DNA of 32,000 nt from positions 690,001 through 722,000 of the forward strand of contig NZ_RSDW01000001.1 of NCBI RefSeq assembly GCF_003945235.1, given 5' to 3'. Shown in pieces: positions 12,122 to 27,398 of this stretch. The stretch is from Edaphobacter aggregans. Lineage in GTDB: Bacteria; Acidobacteriota; Terriglobia; Terriglobales; Acidobacteriaceae. Both the position numbers and the translations under genes were made by a program. Position 1 is the first letter of the stretch; each line of letters begins with the position of its first letter. The notes under the pieces were generated by a model, which saw only the letters and a program-made list of their open reading frames with translations, was not told the DNA's origin and did no database searches.

Positions 12122-13936
12122 ATGGCCCATATCGTTTCGCACTCCGCGCCCTCGTCCGCTGTCCCCGACATCAAGCCCAGCTACAACCGTTTCCTTCTGC
12201 TCGTCGCCGGACTGGGCGGCCTCCTCTACGGAGTGGACGTAGGCATCATCGGCGGCGCGCTGCCCTATCTCGAAGCGACCTCGCACCTTAACGCCGGCCA
12301 GCTCTCTGTCATCGTCGCCGCCGTCCTTCTGGGTAGCGTCTTCTCGACACTCTTCGCCGGCCTGCTCGCCGACTGGATGGGCCGCAAGCCCCTGATGGTC
12401 CTCAGCGGCATTACCTTCGTCTTGAGCATCCCTGTCATAGCCCTCGCCCACGGCTACGGACCGCTCTTCTTCGGACGGCTCCTGCAGGGCATCAGCGGCG
12501 GCCTCATCGGAGTCGTTGTTCCTCTTTACCTTGCAGAGTGCCTCTCGGCGGCGCATCGCGGCAAAGGCACCGGCATCTTCCAGTGGCTGTTGACCTTGGG
12601 CATCGTCGCCGCAGCCATCATTGGCATCTATTACAGCTACCGCGTCGAAGCTGTCGGACGGATCTCCGACGCCGCCACTCTCTTCGCCTTCAAGGACCAG
12701 GCCTGGCGCCGCATCTTCTGGGTCTCGCTTCCACCCGGGCTCCTCTTCGTCCTCGGTAGCCTCTTTGTCTCCGAATCTCCGCGCTGGCTGCTTGCACGCG
12801 GCAAAAAAGACCTTGCCCACGCCGCGCTCCTTCGCTCCCGCTCAACGGAACAGGCCGACCTCGAACTGCGCGAGATGGAAGAGGCCGCCCTCGCAGCCAC
12901 ATCCTCCGGGAACTCGAGCGGGAAAGCTGTGAAGGATACCCTCCTTCGTCGCAAATACGTCATCCCCTTCATCCTGGCCTGCATCATCCTCTTCTGCAAC
13001 ACCGCGACCGGCATCAACTCCATCATTGGCTACAACACCAGCATCCTGCTGCAGAGCGGTCTCTCGGACATCCGCGCCCACTGGGGCTACGTCATCTTCA
13101 CCGTCATCAATTTCTTGATGACCCTGGTCGGCATGACGCTCGTCGATCGCAAGGGACGCAAATTTCTGCTGACCCTCGGTACCTCCGGAATCATCGTCTC
13201 CCTCATCACCGTAGCCCTGCTGTTCCGCACTACGGAGAAATTCAACATCGACTCCAGTGGCGCAGTTCAATCACTCGTTGCTCCCGACCAGACCCTGACC
13301 CTTCCCTTCGACGGAGCTCAGGCCCAGCGCCTCCTCGCCGCGCAGGGATACTCCGGCAGCGAGATCGACAGCAGTCGCGCCTCCCTTGCCGTCATCTACT
13401 CCTTCGGTGACTTCACCTGCGCCACCAGCTACGTCCGCTCAGACGACCGCGGCGCCGCTCCCATCCAGATCAACCGCGAGGGCTGCGTCCCAGCCAACAA
13501 AGTCGAAGCCATCTTCAAAAACCCCTTCGCCAATCTCGAAGCCGCGCGTACTGCGCCCCTCAAAATTGAGCGTGCGCTCATAGGCAGCGTCCCCAACTCA
13601 ACTCACGGTTGGCTCGTCGCCCTCGGCCTCTACTCCTTCATGGCCTTCTTCGCGATCGGCCCAGGCGTCTGTGTCTGGCTCGCCCTCTCAGAACTGATGC
13701 CCACACGCATCCGCTCGAACGGCATGAGCATCGCGCTCGTCATTAACCAAATCGTTTCAACCACGCTAGCCGGCATCTTCCTTCCCGTCGTCAGCAAGTA
13801 CGGTTATTCGACGATGTTCTTCCTCTTCGCGAGCTTCACGGTTATCTATCTGATCACCGCAGTCTTCTTCCTGCCCGAGACCAAGGGCAAGACCCTCGAA
13901 GAGATCGAGCTTCACTTTGAAGGGGCAGGGGTTTAG
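12122..13936 (+). CDS. MFS transporter, sugar porter family, with a large inserted periplasmic loop
   Basis: 604 aa with sugar-porter signatures GLLADWMGRKP, PESPRWL, VDRKGRK and PETKGKTLEEIE. About 128 extra residues lie between predicted TM9 and TM10. Confidence 0.88.
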   Translation: MAHIVSHSAPSSAVPDIKPSYNRFLLLVAGLGGLLYGVDVGIIGGALPYLEATSHLNAGQLSVIVAAVLLGSVFSTLFAGLLADWMGRKPLMVLSGITFVLSIPVIALAHGYGPLFFGRLLQGISGGLIGVVVPLYLAECLSAAHRGKGTGIFQWLLTLGIVAAAIIGIYYSYRVEAVGRISDAATLFAFKDQAWRRIFWVSLPPGLLFVLGSLFVSESPRWLLARGKKDLAHAALLRSRSTEQADLELREMEEAALAATSSGNSSGKAVKDTLLRRKYVIPFILACIILFCNTATGINSIIGYNTSILLQSGLSDIRAHWGYVIFTVINFLMTLVGMTLVDRKGRKFLLTLGTSGIIVSLITVALLFRTTEKFNIDSSGAVQSLVAPDQTLTLPFDGAQAQRLLAAQGYSGSEIDSSRASLAVIYSFGDFTCATSYVRSDDRGAAPIQINREGCVPANKVEAIFKNPFANLEAARTAPLKIERALIGSVPNSTHGWLVALGLYSFMAFFAIGPGVCVWLALSELMPTRIRSNGMSIALVINQIVSTTLAGIFLPVVSKYGYSTMFFLFASFTVIYLITAVFFLPETKGKTLEEIELHFEGAGV

Positions 13937-14071
13937 TTCGGAACGCTGCATCTCACCCACAGCGACGCGACAAAAGTCCTACTCCTACGCGGCTGCAAGC
14001 ATGAGCTCGTACAAGTCGGCTGATCCCGTGCCCGCAAAGCGTTGGGTCCCTCCTGCAGAGCCCGTCATGCT

Positions 14072-14101
14072 ACAAAAAGGAGCCAGGCATTGGCCTGGCT
14101 C
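14072..14101 (-). terminator. Intrinsic terminator of small-peptide gene copy 1
   Basis: 9-bp stem GAGCCAGGC (14080-14088) / GCCTGGCTC (14093-14101) with a 4-nt loop, followed on the minus strand by CTTTTTGT. A second hairpin (CCCGCTG 14113-14119 / CAGCGGG 14132-14138) lies between it and the stop codon. Confidence 0.7.
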
Positions 14102-14152
14102 TATGGGGAAATCCCGCTGCCTCATGAAGGACAGCGGGCACAACCTCCGACA

Positions 14153-14245
14153 CTAACGGGTTGATGAGAAGCGGAACTGATCGCGGATCTGAATGAGTGC
14201 GATAACGGCAAGAGCAACCATGGCGGGCGAAAACAATAGATACAT
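14153..14245 (-). CDS. Small hydrophobic membrane peptide, 30 aa (paralog 1); not in the ORF track
   Basis: The minus-strand translation is MYLLFSPAMVALAVIALIQIRDQFRFSSTR*. An SD (GAGGAG) lies 7 nt upstream of the ATG, and a dedicated terminator follows. It is 23/30 identical to the copy at 15467-15559, and most nucleotide differences are synonymous. Confidence 0.75.
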   Translation of the reverse strand: MYLLFSPAMVALAVIALIQIRDQFRFSSTR

Positions 14246-14303
14246 AGCAGTTCTCCTCTTTTGCGAAATGTGAAATGTAAGCTTGGTGTTTGTGATTCCC
14301 TGC

Positions 14304-14335
14304 TGCGGAGGAAACGGCAAATGCCAGCCTCCGCA
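14304..14335 (-). promoter_or_regulatory. Conserved hairpin upstream of small-peptide gene copy 1 (also 3' of the PEP-CTERM gene)
   Basis: 8-bp stem TGCGGAGG (14304-14311) / CCTCCGCA (14328-14335) with a 16-nt loop and no U-tract. Its proximal end is 58 nt upstream of the peptide ATG. A counterpart sits at the same distance in copy 2. Confidence 0.4.
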
Positions 14336-14356
14336 ACAGGCCTCAGTCGCAATTAC

Positions 14357-14977
14357 CTATGCGCGAACCAGTTTCCGGCGAACCACGCCCCCCAGACCCA
14401 CCAGTCCCGATCCCAACAACAGCAGGCTCGACGGCTCCGGCGTCGGTGCAAGCCCGATCATCTCCTGCGGAAGGCCCAACCCACGGCCATCAGCAATGTC
14501 GTTTCCGGTCGGGATATAGAAGTTGTAGTCGTCCAGGAACGAGCTCGTGTAGCCGCCGAACGAGTAAGCGTTGCTCACCAGGGTCGAGGCATACGAATCC
14601 GTGTTCGCACCATGGTCAAAGATGTACCAAAGTGCTTCCTGAACATCGGTGGCGTTGTAGGTATGACCATGACCATTCGAAACCCCAAGCATGCTGTAGA
14701 TGTAAGCCTCTTCCTCATACTTGAAGCCGGTTGAGCTCTTAGAGGAGTTCAGATAGGCATCGCCGTTCACGATGTTTACCTGCCAGGACTCTCCAACCTG
14801 GACCTCCCGCTGGTCATCGAGGCAAAACAGGCTCACTGGCGTCGTTCCATCGAGTTGCAACTGATACGGGCCAGTCTGTCCGGTCGCGGCTCCGACCATC
14901 TTCAGCGTGTCAGCCTTTGCTGAACCAGAGAACAACGCAAGACAGATAGCAGGCAAAAGATAAGCAATTTTCTTCAC
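14357..14977 (-). CDS. PEP-CTERM sorting domain-containing secreted protein
   Basis: The C-terminus PTPEPSSLLLLGSGLVGLGGVVRRKLVRA shows the PEP motif, a TM helix and a basic tail. The start was set to the GTG at 14977, which has AAGGAGAA 5 nt upstream. That gives the signal peptide VKKIAYLLPAICLALFSGSAKA. Confidence 0.85.
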   Translation of the reverse strand: MKKIAYLLPAICLALFSGSAKADTLKMVGAATGQTGPYQLQLDGTTPVSLFCLDDQREVQVGESWQVNIVNGDAYLNSSKSSTGFKYEEEAYIYSMLGVSNGHGHTYNATDVQEALWYIFDHGANTDSYASTLVSNAYSFGGYTSSFLDDYNFYIPTGNDIADGRGLGLPQEMIGLAPTPEPSSLLLLGSGLVGLGGVVRRKLVRA

Positions 14978-15408
14978 TTCGTTTCTCCTTGCTCGCCGTG
15001 CGAGCGTTTGTTCCAAAGTGTCCATTCATCTGGTCTGCTTTGCCGTCGTTGTAACCGCGGCCTCGACTCACCGATTGAACACTCTGCTTTCACGAACACA
15101 CGGCTTCGCGAAAGAATCCATAGTTCTGGCCACGCGTCCATTCAGAAGATTGGGCGCCACAGCCGCTTCCATTGCTTTGCTGGTGCACTATCCCTTATTG
15201 CAAGCAAGAGGCCATTCGCAAAATTTTGCATATTCGCAGAAGAAACGCCGTTTTCAGCTGGGCAGGACGTTCGGTGTACCAAAAAGCGACATCGTAGACA
15301 AAGCGATTGCCCTCCCCAGAGGCAAAAGTTTTCCCTCGCGTTTCCCCTGATAAGTATTTCGCTTCACACACTTACGGAACGAAGCCGAATCTCCAAACAA
15401 CTCGTACG

Positions 15409-15440
15409 CCAAAAAAAAGCCAGGCTAAAAAGCCTGGCTT
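15409..15440 (-). terminator. Intrinsic (potentially bidirectional) terminator of small-peptide gene copy 2
   Basis: 10-bp stem AAGCCAGGCT (15417-15426) / AGCCTGGCTT (15431-15440) with a 4-nt loop. The plus strand has an A8 run (15411-15418), which is a U8 tract on the minus strand, and TT follows on the plus strand. The stem sequence is homologous to the copy-1 terminator. Confidence 0.8.
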
Positions 15441-15466
15441 TTACAAACTTTAAAACTGACCGATCT

Positions 15467-15559
15467 TTAACGAGGAGACGAAAAGCGAAATTGATCCCGA
15501 AGCTGGATCAGAGCAATAACAGTGAGAGCAGCGAAGGCAGGCGTGAAAAATAGATACAT
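15467..15559 (-). CDS. Small hydrophobic membrane peptide, 30 aa (paralog 2); not in the ORF track
   Basis: The minus-strand translation is MYLFFTPAFAALTVIALIQLRDQFRFSSPR*. An SD (AAGGGGA) lies 6 nt upstream of the ATG, and a strong terminator follows 26 nt after the stop. Paralog of 14153-14245. Confidence 0.75.
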   Translation of the reverse strand: MYLFFTPAFAALTVIALIQLRDQFRFSSPR

Positions 15560-15615
15560 GGTGATTCCCCTTTGCGAAAAGATGAATGAACTTCAGTACT
15601 GCATTTGTTTCCCCA

Positions 15616-15645
15616 TTGCGAAGGAGTTGTACAACCCCGCCGCAA
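15616..15645 (-). promoter_or_regulatory. Conserved imperfect hairpin/palindrome upstream of small-peptide gene copy 2
   Basis: The plus strand reads TTGCGAAGGAGTTGTACAACCCCGCCGCAA. Outer arms TTGCG/CGCAA enclose the perfect palindrome GTTGTACAAC. The proximal end is 56 nt upstream of the ATG, matching the position of the copy-1 hairpin. Confidence 0.4.
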
Positions 15646-16076
15646 CAAGCTCTTCAGAATCTCGCCTTCCTCGAAAACACTCCGGGAAGACTCCCTTACT
15701 TGTTATCACGTAACCCGGCTCGTTTAAAGCCCAAGCATGGTAACCACTTTGATTACAAGCTGATACAGCATAGTTACCAGCAAATAAGCGGCCATTTGCG
15801 AATATGCAGATTTCAAGGGAGAATCGCTGTTTTTAGCCTGGAGAGTGACCCAACTATGCAAAACAAGTCGCATTTTGGGAAAACTATTATCTACTGCAAA
15901 ATGGCAAAGATTTTCCCACATGCAGCAACTTGCACGCACAACCCTGCGCCCACATACGCAAGAAAATGCAAGGCGGCTACTTCAGAAAGGCAATTAGGGG
16001 ATGCCGAAAAGTAGGTCCTTCAAGGGCCGCTGAAACCTCAGCGCAACGAAACATCGCCCGGGCTAAAGTCGAACCT

Positions 16077-17228
16077 TTAAACCGCAACCGTGAACGTATC
16101 CTCGCTCCGTGTCACCGCGCGATACATCGTGTCCCGCTCGAAAGGCTCTCGTCCAGCCTCTGTAATCAGCCGAACCAGATCCTTCCTTCGCATGCCCTGC
16201 GGGGTAGTCGCTCCCGCATCGTGATAGATCTTCTCCTCGACAACCGTGCCATCGATGTCATCAGCGCCGAACCGCAGCGAGATCTGCGCCATCTTTGGCG
16301 AGACCATCTGCCAATAGCTCTTGATGTGCGAAAAGTTATCCAGCATCAACCGGCCCACCGCAATCTGCTTCATATCGAGCATCCCGGTCGTCCGCGGAAT
16401 ATGCGCCAACGCCGTATTGTCCGGATGAAACGCCAGCGGAATAAATGTCTGGAATCCGCCTGTCTCATCCTGCACCGCCCGAAGCTTCAACAGATGGTCG
16501 ACGCGATCCTCATCGTTCTCGACGTGCCCGTAAAGCATCGTCGCATTCGACCGAAGCCCGATCTTGTGCGCCGTCCGAGCCGTATCCAACCATTCGCTAC
16601 CGTCGATCTTGTGGTCGCAGATGATATGCCGGATCCGGTCAGCAAAGATCTCCGCGCCGCCACCCGGCAACGAGTCCACGCCGGCCTCCTTCATCCGCTC
16701 CAGCGTCTGGGCAATCGTCATCTTGCCGCGTTTGGCCAAAAACGCCACCTCCACCATGGTGAACGCTTTGATATGTACCTTCGGAAACCGCTCCTTCAAC
16801 CCGCGCACCAAGTCCATGAAGTATTCGAAAGGAAGGTCAGGATGCAGTCCGCCGACAATATGAAACTCGGTCACCGCCTCCGAGTAGCCAGAGGCCGCAG
16901 TCTCCCACGCCTCCTCAAGAGCCATCGTATATGTCCCAGCCTCGCCCTTCTTCCGCCCAAACGCACACAACCTGCAAGACGCCACGCAGACGTTGGTCGG
17001 ATTGATATGCCGGTTCACATTGAAGTAAGCCGTGTTCCCATGCAGTCGTTCGCGCACGAGGTTCGCCAGCCAACCCACCGCCAGGATGTCTCCGCTGCGA
17101 TAGAGAGCCACGCCATCCTCAAAGCTGAGCCGCTCCCCTGCTTCCACCTTTGCCGCAATCGGCAAAAGCGCCTTGTCGTCTGTCTGGAAGGAGTGTCGTG
17201 GGCGCGTGCTCTTCGATTCAAAGCTCAT
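16077..17228 (-). CDS. mqnE: Radical SAM menaquinone-biosynthesis enzyme of the futalosine pathway (aminofutalosine synthase MqnE; MqnC not excluded)
   Basis: 383 aa with the radical-SAM cluster motif CVASCRLCAF (CxxxCxxC) preceded by YFNVNRHINPTNVC. It also carries GGGAEIF, SNATMLYGHVE and QDETGGFQTFIPLAFHPDNT, typical of the MqnE/MqnC/CofH family. The MqnE versus MqnC call rests on recalled motif differences only. Confidence 0.8.
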   Translation of the reverse strand: MSFESKSTRPRHSFQTDDKALLPIAAKVEAGERLSFEDGVALYRSGDILAVGWLANLVRERLHGNTAYFNVNRHINPTNVCVASCRLCAFGRKKGEAGTYTMALEEAWETAASGYSEAVTEFHIVGGLHPDLPFEYFMDLVRGLKERFPKVHIKAFTMVEVAFLAKRGKMTIAQTLERMKEAGVDSLPGGGAEIFADRIRHIICDHKIDGSEWLDTARTAHKIGLRSNATMLYGHVENDEDRVDHLLKLRAVQDETGGFQTFIPLAFHPDNTALAHIPRTTGMLDMKQIAVGRLMLDNFSHIKSYWQMVSPKMAQISLRFGADDIDGTVVEEKIYHDAGATTPQGMRRKDLVRLITEAGREPFERDTMYRAVTRSEDTFTVAV

Positions 17229-22003: not shown

Positions 22004-22714
22004 TTACATACAGCTCGACCGCTCCAGCCGAACGCCCTTATCTGGTCGAAACCCCACCGGAAGCTCCAGACTGATCCGGAACCGCATCCACGTCACCCGC
22101 CCTAGCGGCGTAACCTTACCGTCCGCAGGCTGTTCTATCCGGTGTGCCGTCGACCCGAAATGCGAAGCCACCGTAGCCGCCGCCTTCGCCTGATCCGCCA
22201 TTCCCGGAACCAGATGAGCGTCTAGTATCTCCAACCGACCTTGAGGCGCCTGGCTGACCCGCTCGGCTAACCTGCCCTTCACATCCTCCGACGGAATCGC
22301 GGACTTCCGGTACTCGCTATAAACCTCAGCCAATTGAGCGAAACTCCGCCCATCAGCCGCAAACCGGAACTCCCGCGGATTCCACCCCACTGCATCCTGT
22401 GCCCTAAAACTATAGTCCGTGCTAATCAACAATGGGCTAACCGACTGATAAGGTGGGGTAGCTAACTCCGCATAATCATGAGCAGGCCGCGGTCCCCCAG
22501 CCGGCAGCACCCGCAGAATCCACCCGGAAGCCAACGGCTCCAGCATCACCTCAAGCCCATTCCCAATCGGCCGCACAAACTCCTTACCGGCGCGAACCTC
22601 CCCCTCCAGCACCCCCCGAACGCAAGTCTTCCCTGATGGCCCCGCCGCCCACCCCACCCCGACACCCAGCACAACCACCCAGACCACCGCCACAACCCAA
22701 AACCTAACGCGCAT
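22004..22714 (-). CDS. Hypothetical secreted protein, translationally coupled to glnD
   Basis: The ATG at 22714 has GGAGGAGA immediately upstream and overlaps the last 11 nt of glnD. The N-terminus MRVRFWVVAVVWVVVLGVGVGWAAG is signal-peptide-like. I recognise no family. Confidence 0.6.
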   Translation of the reverse strand: MRVRFWVVAVVWVVVLGVGVGWAAGPSGKTCVRGVLEGEVRAGKEFVRPIGNGLEVMLEPLASGWILRVLPAGGPRPAHDYAELATPPYQSVSPLLISTDYSFRAQDAVGWNPREFRFAADGRSFAQLAEVYSEYRKSAIPSEDVKGRLAERVSQAPQGRLEILDAHLVPGMADQAKAAATVASHFGSTAHRIEQPADGKVTPLGRVTWMRFRISLELPVGFRPDKGVRLERSSCM

Positions 22715-25364
22715 TCTCCTCCATCGCCTCAATCAGTGCCCGCCCCAGAGCCTCTTGCTCATCTTTCTCCAGCTTCGCCCCATCCTTGGTCAGATAAAAC
22801 ACGTCGATCGCCATCTCCCCCTCGGTATCGATCAGCGCCACCTCGATATTGCATCCAAACCCGGCCAGTGTCAGACTCAACGCCCGAAGCAGCCCGGGAA
22901 CGTCCTGCGTCACCACCTCCACCAGCGTGCTGTGCGACGACGCCTCATCATCAAACTCGACCCGTGTCTCCACCACCACCTTCGGAGCCTTGCGCCGCCC
23001 CCGTTTCCGCCCACTCAATAGCTTCTCGACCGACACTGTCCCCGTCATCACATCGTGGACACTCTTCACAAACCCCACATGCTCCGAAGCATTCATCTCC
23101 AGCGTCCGGAAACTGTCCGTAAACCGGAAGCTATCCACTACCACCCCCTGCCGGTTCGAAAACGCATCCGCCGTGACGATGTTCATCCCCCACCCAGCCA
23201 GCGCACCCGACATGTTCGCGAACAGCAGCGCCCGATCCGGCGTCACCACCGTCAGCTCACTCACTGCTGGCGAGTACCGGAAATCCAGCTGCACCGCATC
23301 CTCCCCCAACCGCTGCGACATCTGGAAGTGAGTCCGCACTTGCTCCGGCGTACGCGTCCGCACATACCTCTCTGGAAACCCCTCAAGATACCCCGCCACC
23401 GCCGCCCGCTGTCCGGGCAGCAACGATGCCACCCGATGCACCAGCTCGCTCTCCGCCTGCGCTCCCACCCGCTCCTCATCCACGCTGCGATCCAGATGAT
23501 TCGCCGTCGCCATATACAGCCGCCACAGATTCTCCGCCTTCCAGGGCGTCAAGGCATCCGGATGCACTGCGTTAATGTCCGCATACGTAAACAGCGTCAG
23601 CATGCGAAGCATCTCAGGCGTCTGAACCTTGCCCGCAAACGCCCCCACCGTCTCGGCGTCGAAGATATCCCGCCGCAGCGCAGCCGACATCTCCAGATGG
23701 TTCGCAATCAGCCCCAACACCAATCCGCTCTCATACGAATCCAGCTCCAGCCGAGCCAGCACACTCTGCGTTAGCCGAACACTCTCCTGCGCATGACTGC
23801 CTGTCTCCCGCCCCTTACCCGTGTCATGCAGCAAAGCCGCCAGATACAGGAGCCCCGGATGAGGCAGCTCCCGCAACAAACCTCCGAACCGCGTCGACCA
23901 CTCCGCCTTCGCTCCCGTCTGCGCATCCTCCAGCGCATGCAGCGTATCGATCAACACAAACGTGTGCTCATCGACCGTGTACCGGTGGTAAGCATCGCGA
24001 ATCACCAGCGCATCGATCCCATGAAACTCCGGAATCAGCAGTTCCAGCACCCCCAGCGCATGCATCGAGCGCAGCGCCGCCCCCGCATGCCGCCCCGTCA
24101 GTATGGCCTCGAGCTTGTGCCACAGCGTCGGCCCCTCTTCCAGATCCGCCGACATCAACGGCAGAGCCTCCGAGATCCGCTCCTCGGCCTCCCTGCCCAG
24201 CGTGCACCCCGTCCGAGCCATCGCTGCAAATACCTGCAGCACGACATCCGGGTCGTTCGCAGGATCCTCACCCGCTGCCGTCACCACATCCAGCACCACC
24301 CGCCCCCGCTCCAGGCGAAAGCCCTGCTGCTCCGTCCCCTGCGGCTTCCGGTCACCCTTCAAACCCAGCAGCCTGGACGAGGCCTTCGCAACCGGCGCAG
24401 GAACCTCCTCCATCATCTGCTTCACCCTTTGCTCCACGCTCCGGGCATGCCTGAAGTAGATCCGCATCCAGTACGCCGCATCCACTTTCTTCGGGCGGCG
24501 TCCCACCAACCCGATCTCCCCCTCAGCCGCAGCATCTTGAGCCTTCCAGGCCAACGTATTGTCATCCCGCTCATGCCGATAGTGCAGAAAGCACCGCACC
24601 AGCCGCAGAAACTCCACCGCCTGCCGAAACTCCCGCCCTTCCTCTGCATCCCCATTCTTGGTCTCGACTCCAACCCCCTGCAGCCGAGCCAACCACCCAC
24701 ACACGTTCACATCGCGCAGCCCACCCGGACAGTCCTTGATATTCGGCTCCAGATGAAACAACGTATCCCCATACTTCGCATGACGAGCCCGCGTCAGCTC
24801 CATCAACCGCGCCACAATCGCCTTCTGATCCCGCTGCAACAGCTTCGGCACCACCTGCCCCGACAGCTTGTTGTACAGCTCCGTATCGCCCGTAAGCAGA
24901 CGATGATCCATCAGCGACAGGGCAAACTCAGCATTGTCCTCATCAAACTTCTCGCACTCCGCCAGCTTCCGTGTCGCTGGCGACACCCGTATCCCGCAGT
25001 CCCAAAGCTCCTGATTCACGCGCCGGATCGCGTCCTTCACATCCTTCTCAACCACCCGGCCATCCAGCAGAAACAGCAGGTCCACATCCGAGTAAGGAAA
25101 AAGCTCCCGCCGTCCATACCCACCCACCGCCAGCACTGCAATTCCGCTAGCCAGCCGTGCATCCTGCTCAATAACCTGCTGCCAAAGCCCACCAACCAGT
25201 TCGTCAAGCGCCCGAGCCCGAGCCGCAATCGTCACCGACCCCGACGCACCCGTCTCGAACGCGCCACGAATCTCCAGCATCATCCGCTGGTACTTCCCGC
25301 GCATCCCGCTACTTGTGGATTCGTTTACCTGCATCTGTCTCTTTGCTGTCGGAGCCTCCAGCAT
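22704..25364 (-). CDS. glnD: [Protein-PII] uridylyltransferase / uridylyl-removing enzyme
   Basis: 886 aa with a nucleotidyltransferase motif GGYGRRELFPYSDVDLLFL, an HD domain (LLHDTGKG) and two C-terminal ACT-like domains. The exact start is uncertain: 25364 or the ATG at 25334. Confidence 0.92.
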   Translation of the reverse strand: MLEAPTAKRQMQVNESTSSGMRGKYQRMMLEIRGAFETGASGSVTIAARARALDELVGGLWQQVIEQDARLASGIAVLAVGGYGRRELFPYSDVDLLFLLDGRVVEKDVKDAIRRVNQELWDCGIRVSPATRKLAECEKFDEDNAEFALSLMDHRLLTGDTELYNKLSGQVVPKLLQRDQKAIVARLMELTRARHAKYGDTLFHLEPNIKDCPGGLRDVNVCGWLARLQGVGVETKNGDAEEGREFRQAVEFLRLVRCFLHYRHERDDNTLAWKAQDAAAEGEIGLVGRRPKKVDAAYWMRIYFRHARSVEQRVKQMMEEVPAPVAKASSRLLGLKGDRKPQGTEQQGFRLERGRVVLDVVTAAGEDPANDPDVVLQVFAAMARTGCTLGREAEERISEALPLMSADLEEGPTLWHKLEAILTGRHAGAALRSMHALGVLELLIPEFHGIDALVIRDAYHRYTVDEHTFVLIDTLHALEDAQTGAKAEWSTRFGGLLRELPHPGLLYLAALLHDTGKGRETGSHAQESVRLTQSVLARLELDSYESGLVLGLIANHLEMSAALRRDIFDAETVGAFAGKVQTPEMLRMLTLFTYADINAVHPDALTPWKAENLWRLYMATANHLDRSVDEERVGAQAESELVHRVASLLPGQRAAVAGYLEGFPERYVRTRTPEQVRTHFQMSQRLGEDAVQLDFRYSPAVSELTVVTPDRALLFANMSGALAGWGMNIVTADAFSNRQGVVVDSFRFTDSFRTLEMNASEHVGFVKSVHDVMTGTVSVEKLLSGRKRGRRKAPKVVVETRVEFDDEASSHSTLVEVVTQDVPGLLRALSLTLAGFGCNIEVALIDTEGEMAIDVFYLTKDGAKLEKDEQEALGRALIEAMEENAR

Positions 25365-25501
25365 ACAACCAGCGGGGCACCTTGCTCGACTTAGTAGCAG
25401 GAGTTAGGGAGAATTTTCGAGAAGGGGGCAGAGTGCCTGTTGAAGAGAAGTAGCAATCAACAGAAGGTAAATGTAACAGAAGTTCTGAAAAGAGATTCAA
25501 C

Positions 25502-25546
25502 GCGGATATTCCCTCAGTAGCTAATAACTACCGAGAGAATATCCGC
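25502..25546 (-). terminator. Long imperfect hairpin between glnK and glnD (terminator/attenuator or processing site)
   Basis: Outer 10-bp stem GCGGATATTC (25502-25511) / GAATATCCGC (25537-25546) with further inner pairing (GTAG/CTAC, CTC/GAG). On the minus strand it is followed by a pyrimidine-rich stretch, GTTGAATCTCTTTTCAG. Confidence 0.4.
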
Positions 25547-25571
25547 CACAAGACTAACTTTGCGAACCGGC

Positions 25572-25916
<345 letters not shown>

Positions 25917-25955
25917 TTAGCCCTTCCTCATAGCTCGCAGCCTAACGCCCGTAGC

Positions 25956-27398
25956 TTAGTGCGCCCAATCGTACCCTTCTTCGCCGTGTTGCGACAGGTC
26001 CAGACCTTCGCGCTCATCTTCCTCACTCACCCTAAGGCCAATCGTCTTATCTACCACGAACAAAATCACCAATGTACCTACAATAGAAAGGCCCCACGCA
26101 ATCGCCACGCCACAGGCCTGATTCAGCACCTGATGCGCGTTGCCCTCAAGCAGTCCAGTCGCCTTCCCTGCCCCAAAGATCGGATTGATTGCGCTGTTGG
26201 CGAACACGCCCGTCAGCAACGCTCCCAGCGTCCCGCCCGCACCATGCACGCCAAACGCATCCAGCGAGTCGTCATACCCGAACCACGCCTTCACCTTCAC
26301 GACCATCAGATAACAGAACACACCGGCAAACAGCCCAATCCAAAGAGCCGAGATCGGCGTCACAAAACCAGCCGCCGGAGTAATCGCGACCAACCCGGCC
26401 ACCGCGCCCGAGATCGCTCCCAGCGCCGAAACCTTACCCTGCCGGATCCACTCCGCGCCGCTCCATCCAATCGTCGCCGCAGCCGCGCCAAAGTGCGTCG
26501 CCACGAAAGCCGAGGTCGCCAGCGTTCCAGCAGCAAGCGCCGACCCGGCATTGAACCCGAACCAGCCCACCCACAGCAAACAAGCCCCAATAAAGCTCAA
26601 TACCACCGAGTGCGGAGGCATCGGCACCTTCGGATACCCCAGCCTCTTGCCCAGATACAGCGCCGTCACCAGCGCCGACACACCCGAAGTCACATGCACA
26701 ACCGTCCCGCCCGCAAAGTCCAGGCAAGGAATCCGCCCACCCAGCGAAGCATTCAACAGTCCACCCTTGCCCCAGACCATGTGCGCCATAGGGCTGTACA
26801 CCATCAACGCCCACAGGATCATGAACACCAGCATCGCCGAAAACTTCATCCGTTCTGCAAACGCGCCCGTAATCAATGCCGGCGTAATAATCGCAAACAT
26901 CAGCTGATACACCATGAACGTCTGTAGCGGAATCGTCGCCGCATACTTCACATCCGGAGCCAGCCCCACTCCATGCAGCAGCACATTATGCAGCCCACCA
27001 ATAAACCAGCTACCCTCGCCAAACGCTAGCGAGTACGTCACCAGCGCCCACAGCACCGTAATCACGGCCATCATGGCGAAGGTCTGCATCATCGTTCCCA
27101 AAATGTTTTTCTTCCGTACCAATCCGCCGTAAAACAGCGCCAGCCCCGGCCCGCTCATCATCAGCACCAGCGCCGCCGAAACCAGCATCCACGCGTTGTC
27201 CCCGGAGGTCTGCGCCGCGGCAATCGCCGTAGCATTATCGGCAGCCTGCTTCTCCAGAGCCGCAATCCGGTCCGGCTGCGTCGCACCCGACTGAGGCGCA
27301 GTCGCCTGCGCCACCGCCACCGGTCCACTCACGACCGCTCCGCCAAAGATCAGCGCCAACACCAGAACCAGAAACACCTTCACTGCTGAAAAACGCAT
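25956..27398 (-). CDS. amtB: Ammonium transporter (Amt family)
   Basis: 480 aa with a signal peptide, 11 TM segments and Amt signatures DFAGGTVVHVTSG and FGVHGAGGTLGALLTG. Confidence 0.95.
   Translation of the reverse strand: MRFSAVKVFLVLVLALIFGGAVVSGPVAVAQATAPQSGATQPDRIAALEKQAADNATAIAAAQTSGDNAWMLVSAALVLMMSGPGLALFYGGLVRKKNILGTMMQTFAMMAVITVLWALVTYSLAFGEGSWFIGGLHNVLLHGVGLAPDVKYAATIPLQTFMVYQLMFAIITPALITGAFAERMKFSAMLVFMILWALMVYSPMAHMVWGKGGLLNASLGGRIPCLDFAGGTVVHVTSGVSALVTALYLGKRLGYPKVPMPPHSVVLSFIGACLLWVGWFGFNAGSALAAGTLATSAFVATHFGAAAATIGWSGAEWIRQGKVSALGAISGAVAGLVAITPAAGFVTPISALWIGLFAGVFCYLMVVKVKAWFGYDDSLDAFGVHGAGGTLGALLTGVFANSAINPIFGAGKATGLLEGNAHQVLNQACGVAIAWGLSIVGTLVILFVVDKTIGLRVSEEDEREGLDLSQHGEEGYDWAH

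Follow-up and report, generated by a model that had tools for sequence, protein, structure and literature searches.

Several bacterial systems in which a very short hydrophobic protein has a defined role are known. MgrB-PhoQ, PmrR-LpxT and SafA represent small regulatory inner-membrane proteins that operate under two-component systems, and AcrZ is an accessory subunit, while the type I toxins Fst, Ldr, TisB, AapA and Ibs are short, hydrophobic peptides, often multicopy and accompanied by a structured untranslated region. The present analysis concerns two short genes, hereafter called copy 1 and copy 2, each coding for a hydrophobic peptide of 30 amino acids, in a stretch of 32,000 nucleotides from the genome of Edaphobacter aggregans (Acidobacteriaceae; contig NZ_RSDW01000001.1, positions 690,001 to 722,000), hereafter called the window. 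A first-pass annotation of the window, made from its letters alone, had described the two loci as a duplicated transcription unit laid out like a type I toxin-antitoxin locus, and had mentioned small membrane-protein regulators as a second parallel. On balance we favour the reading that the two genes are an old paralogue pair belonging to a new family of small membrane proteins, expressed from enhancer-dependent sigma-54 promoters of a kind that they have in common with a PEP-CTERM protein gene, and that the peptide is a partner-binding modulator. The reality of the genes, their family, the promoter and enhancer architecture, the linkage to the PEP-CTERM gene and the leader structure within the clade were computed here; from them we infer sigma-54 dependence, co-transcription of copy 1, the topology of the peptide and the existence and identity of a membrane partner.

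Like MgrB, PmrR, SafA and AcrZ, the window peptide is shorter than 50 amino acids, has a single transmembrane (TM) helix with a conserved face, is encoded in a small unit with its own terminator and has a predicted signal-responsive activator. Unlike them, it is preceded by a promoter of the sigma-54/enhancer type rather than a sigma-70 promoter with a response-regulator box, and its gene is tandemly duplicated, and triplicated at one related locus (L024); there is no sequence relationship to any of the four. Of the two parallels drawn in the first-pass annotation, that with small membrane-protein regulators of the MgrB/PmrR/AcrZ kind was the better fit, partner binding being suggested by the helix face only.

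The promoters also have a described counterpart. In Proteobacteria, PEP-CTERM genes are preceded by a sigma-54 motif and an upstream activator motif, which is sometimes repeated, in a system with PrsK, PrsR and PrsT (Haft et al. 2006, PMC1569441). That regulon is characterized by long non-coding upstream regions and single-gene operons, with a few extra sites before genes that do not code for PEP-CTERM proteins, and its activator motif (motif 1) is 17 nt long, ends in TTTACA and is found about 63 nt ahead of the sigma-54 motif (PMC1569441). The composite promoter of the window resembles that of the proteobacterial PrsR regulon in combining a -24/-12 element with a repeated activator motif, and it stands before a PEP-CTERM gene as well as before the peptide gene. 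It differs in the boxes themselves, GGnAAAnnTTTnCC occurring twice, 98 and 121 nt from the -24 element, in the phylum, and in having a 30-aa protein as the main target.

The peptide family

The open reading frame (ORF) of copy 1 (14153..14245, minus strand; ATG at 14245, stop at 14153) codes for the 30 amino acids MYLLFSPAMVALAVIALIQIRDQFRFSSTR, and that of copy 2 (15467..15559, minus strand; ATG at 15559, stop at 15467) for the 30 amino acids MYLFFTPAFAALTVIALIQLRDQFRFSSPR. The copies are 77% identical as proteins and 72% identical as DNA over 104 nt. Over 24 codons there were 12 synonymous and 7 non-synonymous differences between them, corresponding to a ratio of non-synonymous to synonymous substitution rates (dN/dS) of 0.08 with a dS of about 1.8, and pairs of orthologues gave dN/dS values of 0-0.3, with 0 non-synonymous versus 5-6 synonymous changes. 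The low ratios show that the peptide is under purifying selection, and the mini-ORF proposed earlier can be regarded as a genuine, selected protein-coding gene (dN/dS 0.08-0.3). Since dS between the copies is saturated, the duplication is old. We thus regard the two cassettes as an ancient tandem duplication of a small-protein gene that is conserved in Acidobacteriaceae and has no name.

A profile made from the two window peptides identified 64 clusters (50% identity) at E < 1e-3 among 1.8 billion representatives. A wider protein search, for which the query was an alignment led by a 55-aa extended ORF, returned 174 proteins at E <= 0.01, every one of which is labelled 'hypothetical' and has no Pfam domain. 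The organism names among the protein matches were Edaphobacter and Tunturiibacter only. Scans of genomes and metagenomes yielded 95 loci with the peptide, and 155 distinct peptides of 28-37 amino acids were gathered from the loci and the protein matches together. The family consensus is MYLLFxPAxxALVVIGxIQLRDQF followed by 4-13 polar or basic residues, and M1, Y2, F5, P7, A11, I15, I18, R21, D22 and F24 are 93-100% conserved among the 155 peptides. The ATG, the Shine-Dalgarno (SD) sequence and the reading frame are conserved in all these variants, despite leaders that cannot be aligned with one another.

Scans of the two window peptides and 59 family members with Pfam, NCBIfam and PADLOC found no meaningful relative. 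The best domain matches, to YldA-like (E = 0.019), TsoY (E = 0.073) and Inovirus capsid (E = 0.028) models, involved 1-3 members each and were not considered meaningful, and a profile search of the PDB returned just a generic TM helix (E = 0.32). No publication was found that deals with this peptide or, in Acidobacteria, with the control of PEP-CTERM genes by sigma-54.

Residues 3-20 are hydrophobic (mean Kyte-Doolittle hydropathy 2.1-2.4, with an overall mean of 2.3) and the tail is basic, with a mean net charge of +1, from which the peptide is probably a single-pass inner-membrane helix with N-out/C-in topology. One face of this helix holds the conservation (P7, A11, V14, I15, I18, R21 and D22), and the conservation moment was matched by 52 of 20,000 permutations (p about 0.003). 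Conservation on one side is what would be expected of a helix packed on a partner, and suggests that the peptide packs against a specific partner in the membrane.

Locus L024 (362-845) contains a tricistronic small-protein operon. Three tandem paralogues of the peptide gene, all preceded by an SD of their own, stand downstream of one sigma-54 promoter, and the 50-70 nt that separate neighbouring ORFs contain no terminator.

Layout of the two cassettes

Both cassettes are on the minus strand (14072-14335 and 15409-15645, 264 nt in copy 1 and 237 nt in copy 2), and the order of five elements reported for them was the same in our analysis: a hairpin, a GGGAA(T/A)CA block, a pre-SD block with the SD, the 30-codon ORF and a terminator. 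The upstream block of copy 1, GGGAATCA (14300-14293), is followed by the pre-SD block TTACATTTCACATTTCGCAAAAGAGGAGAA, which includes the SD (14280-14251; together 14251..14300, minus strand), and in copy 2 the corresponding sequences are GGGAAACA (15613-15606) and GTTCATTCATCTTTTCGCAAAGGGGAA, again including the SD (15591-15565; together 15565..15613, minus strand). Pairwise alignment of the two regions showed that a CATT...TTTCGCAAA(A/G)G block is common to both leaders and that both hairpins begin with (C)TGTTGCGG. These leader blocks have been kept although the two ORFs have reached saturation at synonymous sites (proportion of synonymous differences, pS, 0.69; dS about 1.8), so the likeness of the cassettes is neither due to chance nor merely recent.

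The observation held at the coordinates given in the first-pass annotation. The proximal ends of the leader hairpins are 54 and 57 nt from the ATG (earlier given as 56-58 nt), and the hairpin of copy 2 is 432 nt from the stop codon of mqnE at 16077 (earlier about 430 nt). A GCCAGGC/GCCTGGC stem is present in both terminators, at 14101-14080 with a T-run and at 15442-15415 with T8. The intrinsic terminator of copy 1, GAGCCAGGCCAATGCCTGGCTC (14101-14080 plus T-run, minus strand), was identified with a terminator scan, and that of copy 2, AAAAGCCAGGCT-TTTT-AGCCTGGCTTTT with its T-run (15408..15442, minus strand), corresponds to an inverted repeat (I8) with 12-nt arms of 100% complementarity. In the 3' untranslated region (UTR) of copy 1 (14072..14138, minus strand) the terminator is preceded by a first hairpin, CCCGCTGTCC...GGCAGCGGG (14138-14113); copy B of loci L002 and L003 has, of a 3' UTR of this type, only the first hairpin. 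Pairwise alignment identified the terminator as the sole common part of the 3' UTRs of the two window copies. What did not hold was the description of the approximately 270-nt unit as the whole transcription unit, as the promoter and enhancer of copy 2 are located 220-360 nt upstream of its ATG.

Sigma-54-type promoters and paired activator boxes

Composite promoters, consisting of a -24/-12 element and upstream boxes, were found exactly twice in the window, and the two, P1 and P2, can be aligned with each other. The -24/-12 element of P2, TGGCCGCTTATTTGCT (15779..15794, minus strand), ends 219 nt upstream of the ATG of copy 2, with a predicted start site near 15768, and it is conserved in the orthologues L001, L002, L003, L017 and L018. 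The upstream activator site of P2 (15878..15916, minus strand) contains the boxes GGAAAATCTTTGCC (15916-15903) and GATAATAGTTTTCC (15891-15878), with starts 122 and 97 nt ahead of the -24 T. The corresponding element of P1, TGGCCTCTTGCTTGCA (15199..15214, minus strand), lies ahead of the PEP-CTERM gene that is followed by copy 1, and its activator site (15300..15334, minus strand) contains the boxes GGAAAACTTTTGCC (15334-15321) and GGGCAATCGCTTTG (about 15313-15300), the distal of which begins 120 nt upstream of the -24 T and aligns with P2 and with the promoters at other loci. The pattern TGGCC-N6-TTGC has two matches in the 32-kb window, TGGCCGCTTATTTGCT and TGGCCTCTTGCTTGCA only. Both elements have GG at -24 and GC at -12, at the exact spacing of 10 nt, within the flanking consensus TGGCACG-N4-TTGCW.

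Across the family, sigma-54-type sites were sought as GG-N10-GC with at least 9 of 12 matches to TGGCACG-N4-TTGCW. In the 37.6 kb upstream of 86 units, 59 such sites were in the sense orientation versus 5 in the antisense orientation, and the positions which the scan did not force follow the sigma-54 consensus (C at position 4 in 36/47, G in 32/47, T in 41/47, and A/T after GC). Most loci of the family have two palindrome-like GGnAAAnnTTTnCC boxes on the upstream side of the -24 T, at distances of about 98 and 121 nt. They occur at 8.1 hits per kb versus a background of 0.96 (8-fold), at a tightly fixed position, and this placement holds even where the other intergenic DNA cannot be aligned. 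Paired, dyad-like boxes at such a distance fit the usual picture of upstream activator sites, which stand about 80-150 bp away from a promoter.

A composite promoter is found directly upstream of the peptide gene in 56 of 90 distinct units. In a further 16 the composite precedes a PEP-CTERM gene that is directly followed by the peptide gene, and in those that remain the upstream DNA is too short or shows just a sigma-54 site. Every unit with enough upstream DNA has a sense-strand sigma-54-type site (TGGC-N7-TTGCA). When the composite was strictly defined, about 410 kb of loci contained 72, of which 53 precede a peptide gene and 15 a PEP-CTERM gene. Three of the four left over are at a truncated PEP-CTERM gene (L021), one that is probably cut by the contig end (L071) and a peptide gene missed by the search pattern (L094), and the fourth is a reverse-strand match at a palindromic box (L007). 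Read against established knowledge of sigma-54 systems, the anatomy is well supported as that of an enhancer-dependent sigma-54 promoter with paired activator sites, and actual dependence on RpoN and on a bacterial enhancer-binding protein (bEBP) would be expected from it.

The PEP-CTERM gene and its link to copy 1

The gene between P1 and copy 1 (14357..15025, minus strand) is a 222-codon ORF, counted from the longest ORF start, ATG 15025, with a match to Pfam PF07589 at residues 194-217. The true start is likely GTG 14977, after the SD AAGGAGAAA, which would give the signal peptide VKKIAYLLPAICLALFSGSAKA. The 5' UTR predicted for this gene (15189-14978, minus strand) is about 210 nt, a length like that of the copy 2 UTR, with which it cannot be aligned.

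Copy 1 is located 111 nt behind the PEP-CTERM gene and shows no detectable promoter of its own. Since the composite promoter precedes the PEP-CTERM gene upstream of it, copy 1 is probably co-transcribed with that gene from P1. The PEP-CTERM proteins encoded next to the peptide form one homologous family. Over 20 loci, those of three Tunturiibacter genomes among them, have a gene for a homologue of the window protein (29-98% identical) immediately upstream of the peptide gene. Loci of the Tunturiibacter type have a second sigma-54-like element, TGGTC-N6-TTGCT, in the spacer between the PEP-CTERM and peptide genes, about 102-111 nt before the ATG (L004 (2895-2915), L005, L006, L027, L050 and L090), where the window has the hairpin instead. 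Three architectures were thus distinguished: promoter-peptide, as in copy 2; promoter-PEP-CTERM-hairpin-peptide, as in copy 1; and promoter-PEP-CTERM-second TGGT-N7-TTGC site-peptide, the Tunturiibacter type.

In the closest relatives of the window (L001-L003 and L017) both copies of the peptide gene are present and the PEP-CTERM gene is missing. At L001 (2840-3000, compared with window 15214-14290, minus strand) the P1 leader runs directly into the 3' arm of the hairpin of copy 1, suggesting a deletion of about 0.8 kb in these loci or, alternatively, an insertion in the lineage of the window. In an unrelated genomic context (L012-L014) the peptide gene is followed by a different PEP-CTERM gene with its own TGGC-N7-TTGC element.

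At L012 (4109-5223) the element of the unrelated PEP-CTERM gene, TGGCGCATAAGTTGC, is about 20 nt from the called start; a DsbA-like gene is upstream of the peptide gene, and genes for a UbiE-type methyltransferase and a radical SAM protein are nearby. At L021 (~900-1175) a PEP-CTERM gene cut to its signal peptide and PEP-CTERM anchor (73-119 codons) has kept the composite promoter, and appears to be an internally deleted remnant.

Leader hairpins and 5' untranslated regions

The hairpin of copy 1 (14299..14340, minus strand; inverted repeat I9, 14299-14311/14328-14340) has 13-nt arms of 92% complementarity and a folding energy of -33.6 kcal/mol (z = -5.5). It starts 17 nt past the stop codon of the PEP-CTERM gene and is without a U-tract; a role in processing, stability or partial attenuation may be considered. 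The hairpin of copy 2, GTTGCGGCGGGGTTGTACAACTCCTTCGCAA (15616..15645, minus strand; I5), folds at -19.1 kcal/mol (z = -2.8). A hairpin 50-60 nt before the ATG was found for both paralogues, in nine sequences that represent about five lineages within the Edaphobacter-like clade. The base of the stem is conserved (CYTG-TGC...GCA-CARG), the inner stems vary in sequence and length, with four pairs showing double changes, and each version folds alone at z values of -2.3 to -5.5. The structured leader described earlier is therefore under constraint, the hairpin having been kept with differing inner stems in five lineages.

The predicted 5' UTR of copy 2 is about 210 nt long (15560..15768, minus strand), its 5' end being placed from the position of the promoter. 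Mean column identity across 5 orthologues is 81%, with long invariant blocks, and the last ~55 nt show almost no variation between species that differ at 29-34% of the synonymous sites in the ORF. Being more conserved than the synonymous sites of the ORF, this UTR is itself constrained. The consensus fold of the copy 2 orthologues contains several stem-loops, including the hairpin of the first-pass annotation. Outside the Edaphobacter-like clade the leaders cannot be aligned.

Each leader of the window also has two sites containing GGA, one in the GGGAA just 3' of the hairpin (14291-14300 and 15605-15613) and one in the SD about 40 nt downstream (14251-14258 and 15565-15570). Sites spaced in this way would suit a translational repressor of the CsrA type, which may serve as a lead.

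Genomic setting

Most loci are just downstream of mqnE (TIGR03700), with a gap of 300-470 nt, and some are elsewhere. Judged by synteny, inheritance at the position beside mqnE is vertical. A functional link to mqnE and menaquinone was considered and set aside, as the peptide gene has its own promoter after the 300-470-nt gap and also occurs away from mqnE.

Two other regions of the window were noted. A nitrogen-control cluster (22704-27398, minus strand) includes a glnD-like uridylyltransferase gene (22704-25364) and the ammonium transporter gene amtB (25956-27398); it is unrelated to the GGnAAAnnTTTnCC boxes, no composite promoter being nearby. A gene for a sugar-porter MFS transporter of 604 amino acids (12122-13936, plus strand) matches its family model at residues 23-372 and 495-596, which indicates an insertion of about 120 residues between the two halves.

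Discussion

The favoured reading, that of a partner-binding small membrane protein under sigma-54 control, would work as follows. A putative sigma-54 activator (bEBP) would bind the two GGnAAAnnTTTnCC boxes, about 100-145 nt upstream of the TGGC-N7-TTGCA promoter. Copy 2 would be monocistronic, transcribed from P2 through the ~210-nt structured 5' UTR and the ORF to the terminator, and copy 1 would be read from P1 together with the PEP-CTERM gene, the U-less hairpin between the two genes acting in processing, stabilisation or attenuation. As the same enhancer and promoter are found on both, the peptide would belong to the same sigma-54 regulon as the PEP-CTERM protein, a protein sorted by exosortase to the cell surface. 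The peptide would then pack its one conserved helix face on a specific membrane partner, in the manner of MgrB, PmrR or AcrZ.

Several observations weigh against this reading. No bEBP gene (GAFTGA) was found near any locus in the 96 sequences searched, the window included. The loci are all from one bacterial family, and the conservation of the promoters may partly reflect shared ancestry. An unrecognised promoter of copy 1 could be present in the 111-nt spacer. Leaders across the family are mildly structured (mean z = -1.1, with 15 of 57 below -2), and the specific hairpin is limited to the Edaphobacter-like clade. Since the boxes differ from motif 1 of the Proteobacteria, the label of a PrsR regulon is unproven and the system is better regarded as an acidobacterial analogue. 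The partner-binding role, finally, is drawn from the conservation pattern alone.

A dedicated function in the PEP-CTERM/exosortase pathway itself, as a component or feedback element, is possible, though we consider it doubtful. The peptide might, for example, be an exosortase pseudo-substrate with an xP-TM-basic layout, or it might bind the sensor kinase behind the activator and close a feedback loop as in MgrB-PhoQ. The same promoter and enhancer precede the neighbouring PEP-CTERM gene, the peptide gene adjoins a PEP-CTERM gene in two independent contexts, and the proline, about 14 hydrophobic residues and Arg of the peptide loosely resemble a sorting signal. However, none of 59 members matched the PEP-CTERM HMM at E <= 1, which argues against the 30-aa peptides being PEP-CTERM proteins, and most loci (56/90) are without an adjacent PEP-CTERM gene. 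PEP-CTERM genes are, moreover, so numerous in such genomes that adjacency alone is weak evidence, and no exosortase, kinase or activator gene is nearby. It is also conceivable, if rather unlikely, that the peptide is the core and most conserved output of an undescribed acidobacterial sigma-54 regulon marked by two GGnAAAnnTTTnCC boxes, and that it modulates exosortase-dependent sorting or the sensor of the regulon. If this were true, it would be the first regulator among small proteins to be linked with the PEP-CTERM/exosortase pathway.

The type I toxin-antitoxin layout of the first-pass annotation, in which the peptide would be a membrane-damaging toxin whose translation is blocked by the structured leader together with an antisense RNA encoded in cis or in trans, appears very improbable. 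The peptide is small and hydrophobic, within the size and membrane character of type I toxins (30 aa, compared with <60 aa), it occurs in tandem copies with a structured 5' UTR and its own terminator, and in the single-sequence minimum free energy fold of copy 2 a GAGAUUC stretch pairs with part of the SD. In the consensus fold of the copy 2 orthologues, however, GAGAUUC has other pairing partners and the SD is unpaired except for pairs to promoter DNA that is not transcribed, and in the fold of copy 1 it is not sequestered. For sequestration by GAGAUUC one change looked compensatory, but the pairing is broken in L003 and absent from the consensus fold.

The first-pass annotation had itself identified no convincing antisense promoter or small RNA (sRNA), and none was found on reanalysis either. 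In silico scans with an E. coli-type consensus detected 0 sigma-70-like promoters on either strand of 13800-16200, and across 54 non-redundant units (-110 to stop+150) 1 antisense sigma-70-like site versus 7.3 expected from shuffles. At the Rfam gathering threshold only one tRNA was found, a permissive scan giving sub-threshold sRNA matches that were all on the terminator; the hairpins of the plus strand are without following T-runs, and the 3' UTRs of the two copies have the terminator alone in common. Further differences from the type I toxins are the predicted activator-dependent promoter, the vertical inheritance at a syntenic locus and the three-copy operon of L024 with its 50-70-nt spacers, and the motif on one helix face together with the fixed synteny by mqnE points to a protein that is inherited vertically and has a specific partner. 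Taken together, the negative searches for antisense RNA and sRNA, the operon of L024, vertical synteny, face-specific conservation and the apparent, predicted dependence of expression on an activator make a type I system unlikely.

A further reading, in which the ORF is incidental and the repeat serves as an sRNA, an attenuator leader or some other non-coding or regulatory element, is hardly credible. In its favour, the leader blocks are more conserved than synonymous sites and sub-threshold Rfam sRNA matches cover the 3' end. Against it, those matches all score far below the gathering threshold and fall on the terminator, the substitutions are strongly protein-like both between copies (12 synonymous versus 7 non-synonymous) and between orthologues (5-6 versus 0), and ATG, SD and frame persist in 155 variants.

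Acidobacteriaceae are abundant in soil, yet almost none of their regulation has been characterized experimentally, and small membrane proteins are routinely missed in annotation. The analysis defines a strongly conserved family of proteins of 28-31 amino acids, a precise cis-regulatory module and a link between this module and PEP-CTERM genes, and removes a tempting but unsupported toxin-antitoxin annotation. The module provides a handle for seeking the cognate activator, and the signal, behind PEP-CTERM/exopolysaccharide-related functions in the phylum.

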